A program made the position numbers. Below are positions 47,821 to 50,800 of a stretch of 64,000 bases of DNA, in pieces (positions within the stretch are counted from its first letter, which is position 1; the number at the start of each line of letters is the position of its first letter). The stretch is from Escherichia coli (GTDB lineage Bacteria; Pseudomonadota; Gammaproteobacteria; Enterobacterales; Enterobacteriaceae). The DNA lies in the NCBI RefSeq assembly GCF_024298765.1, contig NZ_CP101210.1. One strand, 5' to 3'.

Positions 47821-50800
47821 GTTTAAAAGACATCGGCGTCAAGCGGATGTCTGGCTGAAAGGCCTGAAGAATTTGGCGCGTTAACAAAGCGGTTATGTAG
47901 CGGATTGCAAATCCGTCTAGTCCGGTTCGACTCCGGAACGCGCCTCCACTTTCTTCCCGAGCCCGGATGGTGGAATCGGTAGACACAAGGGATTTAAAAT
48001 CCCTCGGCGTTCGCGCTGTGCGGGTTCAAGTCCCGCTCCGGGTACCATGGGAAAGATAAGAATAAAATCAAAGCAATAAGCAGTGTCGTGAAACCACCTT
48101 CGGGTGGTTTTTTTGTATTTGTATTTTGAGCAATGGCGGTAGAGTGGCGGTGGTGTGGCGATATGCAGAAACAATAATGGTGGTGCACGTGCTGTTTAAG
48201 CTCTAAGGATGAAGCAGAATTCTCCTGCAGCTCCTCCGTATTTCGCATAGTGAACCAAGACTTCGGTTAAACAAAATTTTTCTGGGATTTTTCCACTCGA
48301 CTTCATTTTTCCTCCAGTCATCCACCAAAGGTACCTGCGCTAATCTATCTTTTTTAATCTGACAACATCCTGAGAAAAGGCAAATTCGTCAGATTTACTG
48401 TTTTTTCTGCTGCTTCGAATGCCGATGTCTGCAGTACTGATAAGAGCTCTATCTCTTTGATATAGATCTTTTTTTTGATGAATTGCTCGACATATTATCG
48501 TTATGACACCTTCTTGTTAAAGGTGTTGTACTCCACATCTCGATTTTATGATGTGGGTTATGATTGGTTAGTAATAGAGTGTATCGGTATGCGATGTGGT
48601 TTATTAATGGCAATATGCTTTTGTTTGGTATCTTTTAGTGGGTATGCAGCAACAGGAAAGTCTGATGTTCAGATCAAGAAAGAAATAATTAAAGAATCCA
48701 TTGAATCATATCCAGGCAATTGTGCGTGTCCTTATAATCATGCAAGGAATGGTAGTAGGTGTGGTGGACGCAGTGCATATAGCCGTACTGGAGGGTATGA
48801 TGTGGTATGTTATGAGAGTGATGTTACTGATGAAATGATCCGGCAATGGAAGCAGGAGAATGCTGATTAATTACTTTTGACTGGTTTGTTTTGCGAGCAT
48901 TATGTGTGTTGTTAACGGTACCCTAGCTAAGTGAGAGTTCCAAAATAAAACCCGCAGTTTTTACGCTGCGGGTTTTATTGTTTCTGTCGATGGGATAGGG
49001 TGCCACTTCGGCCAGCCTTGGCAACCGATTGACGGGGGATTACTCCCCCGTCGCGGTTTCCTTACTGCTTACACTGTAAGAACGCCGCAAACTCCGCTCC
49101 CCAGAAGCTCATCCGTATTTCACACAGCGAACCGTGCAGCATCCAGATGATGAGGATTACCGTCACGCAGAACGTGATGGCCGTAAGCGATTTTTGCGAC
49201 ATAGCGCTTGCTCCTTTTTAGGGGAGGCGCTAACCTATCACTTGCTAAGGTTAGATGGTTAGGGCCTCGGTTAAACAGAGATGTTTTCCGGGGCCTTTCC
49301 ACATCTGGCCTTCGGGCATACCCTCCGACCATCAGCCGAAAGGCACCCGCGCGTAATCTATCGTTTTTTTGTTGCTTCGGCAATTCTGCTCGTTAATTCT
49401 GAGGTAAAGGCAAACTCATCTGATTGTTTCCCCTGTGTGACGTTGGCAGTTCATGCCACGGGATACCTTCTGAAGATCGAACGCCTGAGGTGTGTTTCGA
49501 TGTGAATTTATGGAAAGCTTCCAGTGTTGAGAAGCATACGCCGCATTCCAGGTTGTTACACTGGTAATACTTTTGTCGGACGGTGTTTGAATCATTTTCC
49601 GGACGACTTGTGCGGATACGGGCAGATGCGCCACAAAGCGGACAACGGAACATAGCAACCTCCCTTTAGGTGGTGCTATTCTAAACTTCATCAATGCAGA
49701 TTCCAACTCCTTCCCACTTTAAGCGAAGGATGGTGATAAAGTCAGAATATGTTAGATGAAGTCTAAACGGGCGATAAGTTTTCCAATATTTGAATAACAA
49801 CGTGGCAGGATTTTTGTTTATCAATTATCTTACACTTTTAAGTGTAATAAATTTGTTAGTGATGACAATATTGTGAGAGGAGATTATCAATTGAAGATGG
49901 CAAAAAATAACAATGATAAAATGCGGGCAAAGTATAGGCCGTTCATAAATATATGGGAACATCTTCCTTCTGAGTTCAATGAACTCATCAAGACGTTAAT
50001 GGTGCTGATACGGCAAGGGGAAAATGTGGGAGCTCAGCAAAGGGAGCTTGATTCCATCGAAAACTTCAAACACCTGTTAAGTGGATGGAAGCGGGCGCAA
50101 AGGATCATAGCTGATGAACTCATTATCAGGCTTTCTCAAATCAAGGATCTGGAGTTAGAAAAGAATTGTGCCCATTCAAAAAAGGACTATGAAACAAAGA
50201 AGAAGTGTATACGCAATATTGAAAGGACTAGACTAGAAATTAGGATTTTACGTAGGTGCATTGATTCAATTGTATGGGCGATATTCCGCAATGAACACTC
50301 GTCTATAAGACGGTTACCTATAAATAGAAATACTGACAATCTGACAATATTTAATATACATGATTCAATGGTGGTAGCAGATGAAATCAATGCTGATCCG
50401 ATGGCTATAGCTGTTATCACTGATATTACTACGTTTGTACATACTGGTGATTTACTTGCGTTAATACCTCAGCAAGGCATAACTTTAATTGAAATAAAAA
50501 GTGGTAAGAAAAATATAGAGTTTTCAAAGGCGGCTATGTTCTCAGTGCAAAGTAAATGTCTTCATTTTGATGAGATTTATAGAAAAGACCTTGATAAAAA
50601 TGACTTGAAACACTATGACAGAGCTAAGCGTCAACTTAAAAGAGCTCAAAATGTGATAGATGTCATTGAAACTGGTAAGGGATTTGATAACTTTTTTCAG
50701 TCTCAAGTAACAATTCATGACAGAGATTTTTGTCCCGATTTTTATACAGATAAGATTATTGAGCTTTGGTATGAGATATATAACGGTAAAACTTGGGCGA

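Follow-up and report, generated by a model that had tools for sequence, protein, structure and literature searches.

Organization of the leuZ-proximal region

The window analyzed here is the whole 64,000-nucleotide stretch of Escherichia coli DNA taken from contig NZ_CP101210.1 (RefSeq assembly GCF_024298765.1). Inward from leuZ it carries a phage attachment core, a set of integrase arm-type repeats, a short degraded segment that we refer to as the stub, a small secreted-protein gene, a hok/sok toxin locus, and the late-gene activator ogr. The original prediction singled out two related segments of about 100 bp, copy A (48336-48440) and copy B (49348-49450), on either side of the secreted-protein gene and hok, and these names are retained below. 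The features are as follows, in window coordinates.

47961-48047, plus strand: intact leuZ, tRNA-Leu(UAA), the integration target (ARAGORN; Rfam tRNA, 57.7 bits)
47993-48116: leuZ-side copy of the 124-bp att core, from the leuZ anticodon loop to the leuZ terminator
48133-48162, plus strand: ogr-side integrase arm-type repeats, three TGGCG motifs with 11-bp spacing (48134, 48145, 48156)
48182-48256, minus strand: hok' remnant, the frameshifted 3' half of a hok ORF (nhmmer E 1.9e-6; repeat D1; peptide GSLCEIR common to intact Hok)
48257-48258: deletion joint replacing 129 nt (profile positions 195-323 absent between two nhmmer matches)
48259-48335, minus strand: remnant of a hok mRNA 5' leader (within nhmmer match 48259-48395, E 4.3e-10)
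48336-48395, minus strand: core of copy A, a hok upstream-region remnant and the last ~11 codons of ogr'
48396-48462: linker S2, which holds the remainder of copy A
48589-48870, plus strand: cargo gene (moron) for a 93-aa Cys-rich protein with an N-terminal signal-like sequence (by eye)
48944-48979: hairpin terminator, left edge of the conserved P88-like backbone (terminator scan; inverted repeat I4)
49062-49202, minus strand: intact hok toxin gene (Pfam HOK_GEF, E 3.7e-7, 30.1 bits, cutoff 22)
49214-49348, minus strand: hok leader and sok region (Rfam RF01794, 42.7 bits, E 1.9e-7, under the gathering score of 59)
49349-49425, minus strand: homologous part of copy B, the hok upstream region (49349-49392) and the last 11 ogr codons (49393-49425)
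49393-49653, minus strand: ogr late-gene activator, 86 aa (Pfam Ogr_Delta, E 4.8e-14; same annotation in strain 8E)

The intact toxin gene belongs to phrog_251, annotated 'MokW-like host killing' (E 2.5e-23), and the interval 49062-49348 as a whole combines a Hok/Gef protein with a sok/leader signature that scores below the Rfam gathering threshold, as expected of a hok/sok locus. Copy B does contain the last codons of ogr, as had been claimed, and the ogr ORF runs along the minus strand. The ogr 3' flank, which had been taken for the site of attP, is instead occupied here by the hok/sok upstream region and leader. Copy B is predicted to be a working junction between the 3' end of ogr and the hok upstream region. 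The putative promoter in this region is placed by position, from the first base of the Rfam model, in both copies; a consensus promoter scan flagged the hok upstream region in neither.

The moron between the stub and hok matches phrog_27544 (E 1.6e-59), and strain 8E lists it as a hypothetical protein; it has no Pfam match above the curated cutoff and none in NCBIfam or PADLOC. Strain PSS-08-2 keeps the linker, its cargo diverges directly after 48462, and the moron is swapped for other genes. The stub-hok interval holds a swappable cargo gene. To its right, other P88-like phages and prophages begin matching at ~48942.

A decayed copy of the hok/sok-ogr junction

The similarity between the two segments is real. 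Positions 48263-48355 align with 49267-49368 at 72.5% identity over 102 columns (blastn E 5.8e-10), and the gapped local alignment score of 128 compares with 63.7 +/- 7.1 in 200 shuffles (z ~9). A nhmmer profile built from six intact hok-ogr alleles recognizes 48259-48395 as the equivalent of 49263-49425 (E 4e-10) and identifies a second block, 48182-48256, as the equivalent of 49055-49133, from the 3' half of hok (E 2e-6). The full homology pairs 48182-48395 with 49055-49425 in the same order and orientation, interrupted by a 129-nt internal deletion and a 17-nt indel.

In other words, two related segments exist and had been roughly placed, but their bounds were wrong: homology reaches ~150 nt further left than proposed, and it stops at 48395 and 49425, so that copy A ends in ~45 nt and copy B in ~25 nt with no detectable homology. 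The partly shuffled block order that had been described disappears in a collinear alignment. The out-of-order block, 'gttgcttcg', matches at 8 of 9 positions; a 100 x 100 comparison would give about one such match at random, and other intact alleles do not keep it (profile consensus 'gttactccg'). This block and the T-rich composition of the others are what speaks for chance, low-complexity similarity as the explanation of the repeats as a whole. Against expectation values of 4e-10 to 6e-10, a z of ~9, a collinear hok-coding block at 2e-6, and the same result with three independent stub alleles, however, chance has practically no standing. The repeats are real, but ordinary.

The stub retains homology to bona fide hok/sok loci (nhmmer E 4e-10 and 2e-6 with the six intact loci), but little of their coding or regulatory content. 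The deleted 129 nt correspond to 49134-49262, which encodes the N-terminus of Hok and spans the Shine-Dalgarno/mok start and Sok regions. What is left of hok' is the frameshifted equivalent of 49062-49133 with the first 23 codons gone, and the stub contains no intact Hok ORF of ~50 aa with an N-terminal transmembrane segment. No mok start or Sok leader is present, and Rfam gave no sok match at E <= 1. Upstream, a -10-like TAGATT is retained, and the 17-nt indel removes the -35 position. On the ogr' side of copy A no Ogr/Delta zinc-finger ORF exists; ~11 terminal codons are recognizable, and neither BLASTP against Ogr nor tblastn in phages returned a match for the translated stub. Judged from its sequence, copy A is probably a pseudogenised paralogue of the hok/sok-ogr junction, with no predicted function. 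None of the RefSeq records inspected annotates the stub.

We also considered whether the linker, 48396-48462, might be further ogr' coding sequence. Its frame is open, but the resemblance of GIRSS to GVRSS was seen by eye only, BLASTP returned no alignment, tblastn of the peptide against phages found nothing, and the nhmmer match ends at 48395; the candidate was dropped, and we treat the linker as lacking ogr homology by all three methods. From 48385 onward it is common to an element at the copA locus.

The prophage boundary lies at leuZ

The true boundary of the prophage is the 124-bp leuZ-derived core at 47993-48116, and not the ogr 3' flank. The core consists of the leuZ 3' half and the leuZ terminator and is an exact direct repeat of L001 37915-38038, beside int. 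In prophage-free K-12, attB is unbroken across the core, and homology to the window stops at 48116. The core occurs once within the window. The far end of the prophage lies beyond it and was placed from a 99.6-99.8% identical genome, strain 8E, in which the core repeat is present at both prophage ends, the second copy adjoins the integrase, and the annotation gives one integrase gene in the whole prophage. Given a core at 47993-48116 and the loss of K-12 homology after 48116, everything from the stub through the secreted-protein gene and hok to ogr falls within a single prophage of the P88-like (Xuanwuvirus) type. That assignment follows the 93.8% identity of 48942-49677 to P88, the gene set of strain 8E, and the 124-bp repeats.

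Neither copy A nor copy B overlaps or resembles the core, and host homology ends at neither. The P2 comparison was equally negative for an attachment relic: the P2 arrangement of ogr, terminator, arm, and core bears no sequence similarity to the flank of either copy. In a sensitive blastn against P2 24000-24520, copy A and the ogr 3' flank had no match, and an extension of copy B matched weakly (E 0.004), in the zinc-finger coding part of ogr only. The TGGCG motifs beside the core are candidate Int-binding sites; the same motif recurs on the int side (L001 37813 and 37842), and L047, a tRNA-Leu-type relative, has a related arm.

Distribution of the stub

The stub and arm occur together in 645 of 5426 E. 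coli genomes (~12% of complete genomes), and the stub adjoins leuZ in every locus inspected. The IMG/VR contig L102, IMGVR_UViG_2548876853_000002, carries int, arm, core, arm, stub, moron, hok, ogr, and D contiguously, with int left of the core; this is the attP form, although the contig may be circular or tandem. The stub is part of the phage genome, given its presence in 645 genomes and in this attP form, and it travels with the phage, since in L102 the run from int and core through arm, stub, and moron to hok and ogr is unbroken.

Phage P88 and P88-like prophages at ihfA and ytfP have an intact hok-ogr at 91-94% identity and no stub. Identity is ~91% among intact hok-ogr alleles across att types and 85-93% among stub alleles, but 67%, gaps counted, between the stub and the intact copy. 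The integrase is 58.5% identical to HP1 Int versus 39% to P88 Int. In the early region, DNA homology to P88 breaks off at L001 34782 (P88 position 2089), and nothing further matches until the hok terminator, which places the stub within a ~4-kb non-homologous lysogeny module. In L047 (Int 71% identical; perhaps a tandem lysogen), which alone among the tRNA-Leu-type relatives was seen in attP form, ogr follows directly after the arm, with no hok. Most IMG/VR contigs with relatives of the integrase are prophage cuts that end at int, so their other end is not covered.

Searches for an intact donor lineage returned little beyond the stub itself. Distant blastn of 48117-48480 against E. coli genomes recovered stub-bearing loci and one copA-locus element only. 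A pattern built on the positions that both copies keep matched 10 IMG/VR loci, each of which carries the stub, and nothing in GTDB species representatives, where a looser pattern gave unrelated matches only (21 Atopobium/Lancefieldella, 1 Cellvibrio). No intact donor-type hok-ogr beside a TGGCG arm was found in E. coli genomes, INPHARED phages, IMG/VR, or GTDB species representatives.

Two records looked informative and were set aside. Escherichia phage 520873 (NC_049344; Int 96% identical; classified Xuanwuvirus) was rejected as evidence of virion content: the record has host yecA, a split int, and an end inside hok, and is a computational prophage cut. The O157:H7 locus was a candidate for a stub without its phage, but IS30 follows directly after the moron, then a gpD that is truncated, and the tail genes; hok-ogr has been deleted from what is otherwise the same prophage.

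Origin of the stub

We propose that the stub in this P88-like leuZ prophage is the decayed remains of a second hok/sok-ogr junction that probably arrived in a swap of lysogeny modules. There are two types of lysogeny module in P2-like phages, of which the 186/HP1 type uses tRNA genes and long cores, and the relationships of the regulatory region can differ from those of the late genes (PMC3448106). Hypothetically, the donor was an HP1/186-type, tRNA-Leu-targeting P2-like phage whose attP was also followed by hok and ogr. Its whole lysogeny module (repressor, int, attP) would have recombined into a P88-like backbone in place of its P2-type module, with the crossover on the ogr side falling within the last codons of the donor ogr, possibly at the 11-nt TTCGTCAGATT (48385-48395). 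The hok'-ogr' stub would have been carried along with the module and decayed later. The order inward from the core is arm (48133-48162), 214-bp stub (48182-48395), linker, cargo, and the predicted working hok/sok and ogr. Because the stub stands at the edge of a foreign lysogeny module, a recombination scar is its most likely identity. A donor of a different lineage is suggested by the 67% stub-intact identity, set against ~91% among intact alleles and 85-93% among stub alleles. A microhomology joint is suggested by the copA-locus element, since its homology starts at 48385, directly after its own arm repeats. Against a module swap, no intact donor-type hok-ogr was found in the collections searched and the L047 relative lacks hok; the same picture would result if a single phage genome had long ago duplicated the segment and one copy had then decayed.

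Such an intragenomic duplication, in which a leuZ-type ancestor copied its own ogr-3'/hok segment and the att-proximal copy decayed, agrees with copies that are collinear, similarly oriented, and ~1 kb apart with cargo between them, and with the arm-hok slot being a cargo hot spot. Unequal recombination at a cargo insertion is an example of a route. However, the stub is 67% identical to the intact copy, whereas divergence across att types is ~9% for intact alleles, and stub alleles differ by 7-15%; the stub also accompanies only the foreign HP1-like int/attP module and begins 20 nt past its last arm repeat. We regard a duplication as rather unlikely. Much less credible is the original prediction that copy A is a chromosomal remnant of an earlier ogr-end/attachment junction, with a second phage trapping the hok and secreted-protein module. 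The stub is indeed nearest leuZ and oriented as an ogr-proximal prophage end should be, and a contiguous int-att-ogr arrangement at tRNA-Leu is known in L047, possibly as a tandem lysogen. But no att core lies between the stub and intact hok, the only repeats being the outer 124-bp pair, and both copies with the DNA between them sit in one prophage with one integrase, to whose int-attP the stub is contiguous in L102, which contradicts the prediction. The same stub recurs in hundreds of genomes of many lineages, which is at odds with a chromosomal remnant, and intact hok-ogr is not trapped but part of the backbone shared with P88 and with the ihfA and ytfP prophages. What survives is that copy A is the relic of another ogr-end junction, one whose ancestry differs from or predates that of the resident junction, although with no att site. 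A deletion in an ancient tandem lysogen that founded the phage lineage is a separate claim, and one with which these observations do not conflict.

It is similarly improbable that the stub has been retained for a function, either as an accessory attP part or as a small transcript from the -10-like element and leader fragment. It is present in all leuZ-type prophages inspected, one of them with different cargo, and a 45-nt stretch, 48336-48380, is identical in the window and in an 85%-identical NDM5 allele. The O157 allele has three changes in that stretch, however, and we discarded selective constraint on the stub as a candidate. Overall, divergence among stub alleles equals or exceeds that of the flanking DNA; the toxin N-terminus, Sok region, and -35 position are deleted; no Rfam match falls on the stub; and it lies ~65-280 nt beyond the core end, whereas L047 needs only ~70 nt of arm before ogr. 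A bolder version of these ideas, that the stub is a datable breakpoint where illegitimate recombination at the TTCGTCAGATT microhomology swapped lysogeny modules between an HP1/186-type and a P2-type Peduoviridae phage, or that its leader fragment is still transcribed and interacts with the resident hok and Sok RNAs, strikes us as distinctly unlikely. If the breakpoint were true, the leuZ-type Xuanwuvirus would be a clean natural example of P2-like phages changing their integration site.

A module swap, our preferred account, involves no new mechanism; the stub would illustrate the scars left by mosaic exchange of int/attP modules, and its presence could be used to mark leuZ-type lysogeny modules. 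The main value of the analysis is a corrected map, in which the stub, secreted-protein gene, and hok are phage cargo or backbone.

Comparison with known systems

Several hok loci of K-12 are reportedly disrupted by IS elements, point mutations, or rearrangements. The stub resembles such inactivated chromosomal hok/sok loci in that toxin expression is lost, as predicted from sequence in this case, and the locus is carried as a remnant. It differs in being intraphage, beside attP, and fused to the tail end of ogr, and in that an internal deletion of 129 nt, and no IS element, inactivated it. A parallel to hokW/sokW of the Stx prophage Sp5 (PMC8621323) is that the intact hok falls in phrog_251, the 'MokW-like host killing' family, and that its DNA is 81.7% identical to Stx2 phage hok loci, although Sp5 belongs to another phage family and the function of the hok described here is a prediction.

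In P2 (NC_001895), as here, attP lies between ogr and int, in the order ogr, terminator, Int arm, IHF site, 27-bp attP core, int. However, the P2 core is 27 bp long and ~100 bp from the ogr stop, whereas the tRNA-derived core of the leuZ phage is 124 bp long and lies ~1.3 kb away, beyond hok/sok, cargo, stub, and arm. P88 and other Xuanwuvirus share the order and orientation arm, optional cargo, hok/sok, ogr, and D, with the cargo varying between the arm and the hok terminator. P88 differs in its P2-type C/cox/int module, its GTCCACAT arm repeats, and its lack of a stub; in the leuZ phage the Int is HP1-like, the arms carry TGGCG, the core derives from tRNA-Leu, and the stub is present. With HP1/186-type modules (PMC3448106), of which HP1 likewise enters tRNA-Leu, it shares a related integrase, direct repeats in the arms, and a long core that restores the 3' half of the tRNA. 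In the leuZ phage, unlike those systems, this module is joined to a P88-like late-gene backbone and flanked by a hok'-ogr' stub.

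A decayed hok-ogr junction beside leuZ

In the window, uvrC, pgsA and the tRNA genes glyW, cysT and leuZ are followed by P2-family phage genes.

Features at the leuZ end of the prophage
47961-48047: leuZ, tRNA-Leu UAA
49062-49202, minus strand: hok (Pfam HOK_GEF)
49393-49653, minus strand: ogr (Pfam Ogr_Delta, E 4.8e-14)
Beyond ogr: a 495-aa ORF, then gpD and tail genes

Among complete genomes the closest is that of E. coli O111:H8 strain 8E (99.8% identity across 48040-49700; 99.6% identity covering 81% of 48000-64000), in which the prophage spans from leuZ to a single integrase, with yecA next.

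Two related imperfect repeats had been predicted here, copy A (48336-48440) near leuZ and copy B (49348-49450) at the end of ogr, and pairwise alignment indicates that their similarity is real. By blastn, 48263-48355 matches 49267-49368 at 72.5% identity over 102 columns (E 5.8e-10), and a second, collinear block pairs 48192-48256 with 49065-49133 (E 6e-7); the gapped local alignment of the copies scores 128, where shuffles give 63.7 +/- 7.1. Six intact hok-ogr alleles (those of the window, of P88 and of prophages at ihfA, ytfP and leuZ) were combined into a profile, which matches the leuZ-proximal segment in three independent alleles; in the window it equates 48259-48395 with 49263-49425 (E 4e-10) and 48182-48256 with 49055-49133 (E 2e-6). 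The repeats are related, but not within the limits first drawn: the homology is longer leftward and shorter rightward, ending at 48395/49425. Nor is the block order partly shuffled. The blocks are collinear, and the out-of-order 'gttgcttcg' is an 8/9 match of which about one is expected by chance, and is not conserved between intact hok-ogr alleles.

Copy B begins exactly upstream of the hok leader matched by the Rfam sok/hok-leader model (49214-49348, hok strand, 42.7 bits, E 1.9e-7, below the gathering score), which makes 49349-49392 the hok upstream region. This region carries the reverse complement of 'taatctatc', giving a -10-like TAGATT with TTGCCG 17 nt upstream, by position a candidate hok promoter; a consensus promoter scan did not flag the hok upstream region. 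As predicted, copy B also includes the end of ogr, the last 11 codons of the ORF occupying 49393-49425. Copy A and its leftward extension are the decayed form of this junction, with 129 nt gone (equivalent to 49134-49262) and a 17-nt indel.

Parts of the stub (48182-48395)
Last ogr' codons
hok upstream region, its -35 position removed by the 17-nt indel
hok leader, about 77 nt
Deletion joint; Sok/mok region and first 23 hok codons absent
hok' 3' half, frameshifted, with the peptide GSLCEIR still legible

Judged from its sequence, the copy A segment is a dead hok/sok-ogr stub. The reading of copy A as what is left of an ogr-end junction was right.

The attachment site

Comparison with the uninterrupted leuZ locus of K-12, where the flanks are continuous across one core copy and homology to the window ends at 48116, places the att core outside both copies, at 47993-48116: 124 bp that start at the anticodon loop of leuZ and take in its terminator. 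This core is repeated exactly at the other end of the strain 8E prophage (L001 37915-38038), 107 bp past the int stop codon. Straight after it, TGGCG occurs three times with 11-bp spacing (48134, 48145 and 48156), and the motif is also present on the int side, a layout that would suit arm-type Int sites. The 186/HP1-type P2-like phages have arm repeats of this sort and long tRNA-restoring cores, and HP1 integrates into a tRNA-Leu gene (PMC3448106); the prophage integrase is 58.5% identical to HP1 Int. The annotated ogr-terminator-arm-IHF-core region of P2 resembles neither copy A nor the flank 3' of ogr in copy B. Because the core lies elsewhere and neither copy resembles a P2-family junction, the proposal that the ogr 3' flank or the copies mark an att junction is abandoned. 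A perfect 12-nt inverted repeat, CAGAAACAATAA/TTATTGTTTCTG (48166-48177/48975-48986), relates the end of the arm region to the hok terminator, probably by chance.

A phage-borne stub and its neighbouring cargo

The two cores enclose everything from 48117 through int, the one integrase. Of 5426 complete E. coli genomes, 645 carry the arm-plus-stub segment (48117-48480), in 614 cases over at least 80% of its length, and it adjoins leuZ in all six loci inspected (8E, O157:H7, NDM5, EC7, strain 572 and PSS-08-2). The IMG/VR contig IMGVR_UViG_2548876853_000002 (34,888 bp) has the attP arrangement: an integrase stands left of the core in place of cysT and the leuZ 5' half, and the order is int (2700-3701), int-side arm, 124-bp core, ogr-side arm, stub, moron (the 93-aa cargo gene), hok, ogr and D. 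The stub is contiguous with attP there, whether the contig represents an excised circle or a piece of a tandem array, and thus belongs to the phage and not to the chromosome. The single integrase, the position of the stub between the cores, its presence in 645 genomes and its contiguity with int and attP in that contig argue against the successive integrations at the leuZ-proximal site that had been envisaged. In O157:H7 ECP19-598 (L002 6849-8400) the leuZ prophage keeps the arm, stub and moron, has IS30 directly after the moron, and has lost hok, ogr and most of gpD; it is a decayed version of that in the window.

Another IMG/VR contig (IMGVR_UViG_2847235940_000003, 45.4 kb) carries int, a tRNA-Leu core, a TGGCG-like arm, ogr and D contiguously (6000-7900). 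This relative, with Int 71% identical, has no hok; the contig is longer than a single phage genome and represents either two lysogens in tandem or an assembly of the attP form. NC_049344.1 ('Escherichia phage 520873', a RefSeq 'complete phage genome') was rejected as evidence of virion content: it takes in host yecA, has its integrase split into two CDSs and ends within hok, so that its ends reflect prophage prediction and are not the termini of a phage. It is classified as a Xuanwuvirus species.

The hok module had also been thought to be trapped between two integrations. From the hairpin terminator (48944-48979) rightwards, however, intact hok-ogr is backbone shared among relatives at 91-94% identity (phage P88, phage Chuche, Xuanwuvirus P884B11, others, and prophages at ihfA and ytfP), and the slot between arm and terminator (window 48396-48942; loci L006, L008, L011 and L012) differs in cargo between P88-like prophages.

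Slot contents, from arm to terminator
ihfA-type prophage: about 100 bp without an annotated gene
Phage P88: 81-aa ORF
ytfP-type prophage: homologue of the 93-aa protein, 75% identical
copA-locus element: 93-aa protein and serine acetyltransferase
leuZ-type PSS-08-2: TagO and a zinc-ribbon protein; same as the window to 48462, then divergent
Window: 93-aa Cys-rich, secreted-looking protein (phrog_27544, E 1.6e-59)

What separates the copies is therefore a slot for cargo together with the hok of the phage itself.

A second hot spot for cargo, perhaps of defence genes, seems to lie in the ogr-D slot. P88 has nothing there, strain B2 has HxsD/HxsB/HxsC, and NDM5 has an IS3 fragment with a group II intron; the 495-aa ORF between ogr and gpD in the window (49873-51360, plus strand) had no match in Pfam, NCBIfam, PADLOC or PHROGs. 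The window has a full 413-aa gpD ORF (51491-52732), where the otherwise 99.6%-identical strain 8E prophage differs, being annotated with a shorter VgrG/Pvc8-family CDS and then a partial CDS (L001 4555-5355). Tail-fibre and assembly genes of opposite orientation flank a recombinase-family gene (58369-58974, minus strand), an arrangement that resembles an invertible, Gin/Cin-type switch of tail fibres (host range).

Origin of the stub

Unlike the late genes and hok-ogr, which are P88-like, the lysogeny module has another character. Its Int shares 39% identity with that of P88, the arm repeats are TGGCG versus GTCCACAT in P88-type phages, and in the repressor region, where P88 has a P2-type C and cox, it encodes an HTH protein of 134 aa along with two additional ORFs. 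DNA homology to P88 in the early region ends at L001 34782 (P88 position 2089) and restarts only at the hok terminator. This foreign module measures roughly 4 kb, and the stub sits at its edge towards ogr, 20 nt past the last arm repeat. With gaps counted, stub and resident junction are 67% identical; among themselves, intact alleles share about 91% identity and stub alleles 85-93%.

We hypothesize, as the simplest reading, that the stub arose through a swap of the lysogeny module. The attP of the donor phage would likewise have been followed by hok and ogr, and the crossover would have fallen within the last codons of the donor's ogr. In the copA-locus element, homology to the window starts at 48385, directly past its own arm repeats. 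The 11-nt stretch 48385-48395 (TTCGTCAGATT) is similar to the 3' end of ogr (CTCATCTGATT) as well as to the copA-locus element (TTCGACTGATT), a likeness that makes it a candidate microhomology joint. An intact donor hok-ogr was not found among E. coli genomes, IMG/VR or GTDB species representatives, and for this reason an old intragenomic duplication stays a live alternative, though a less probable one than the module swap.

Relation to known systems

What stands of the original prediction is the ogr-end relic at copy A; the att assignment, successive integration here and the trapped material do not. Degenerate hok/sok loci were reportedly described by Pedersen and Gerdes in 1999. It is established that hok is enriched in prophages (bioRxiv 10.1101/2025.08.07.668861), that hokW-sokW is a functional prophage hok/sok locus (PMC8621323), and that P2-like phages exchange regulatory and integrase regions as mosaics (PMC3448106). 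With degenerate hok/sok loci, prophage hok, tRNA-targeting long-core lysogeny modules and mosaic exchange all already known, the stub is a new, unannotated case of a known type of scar.
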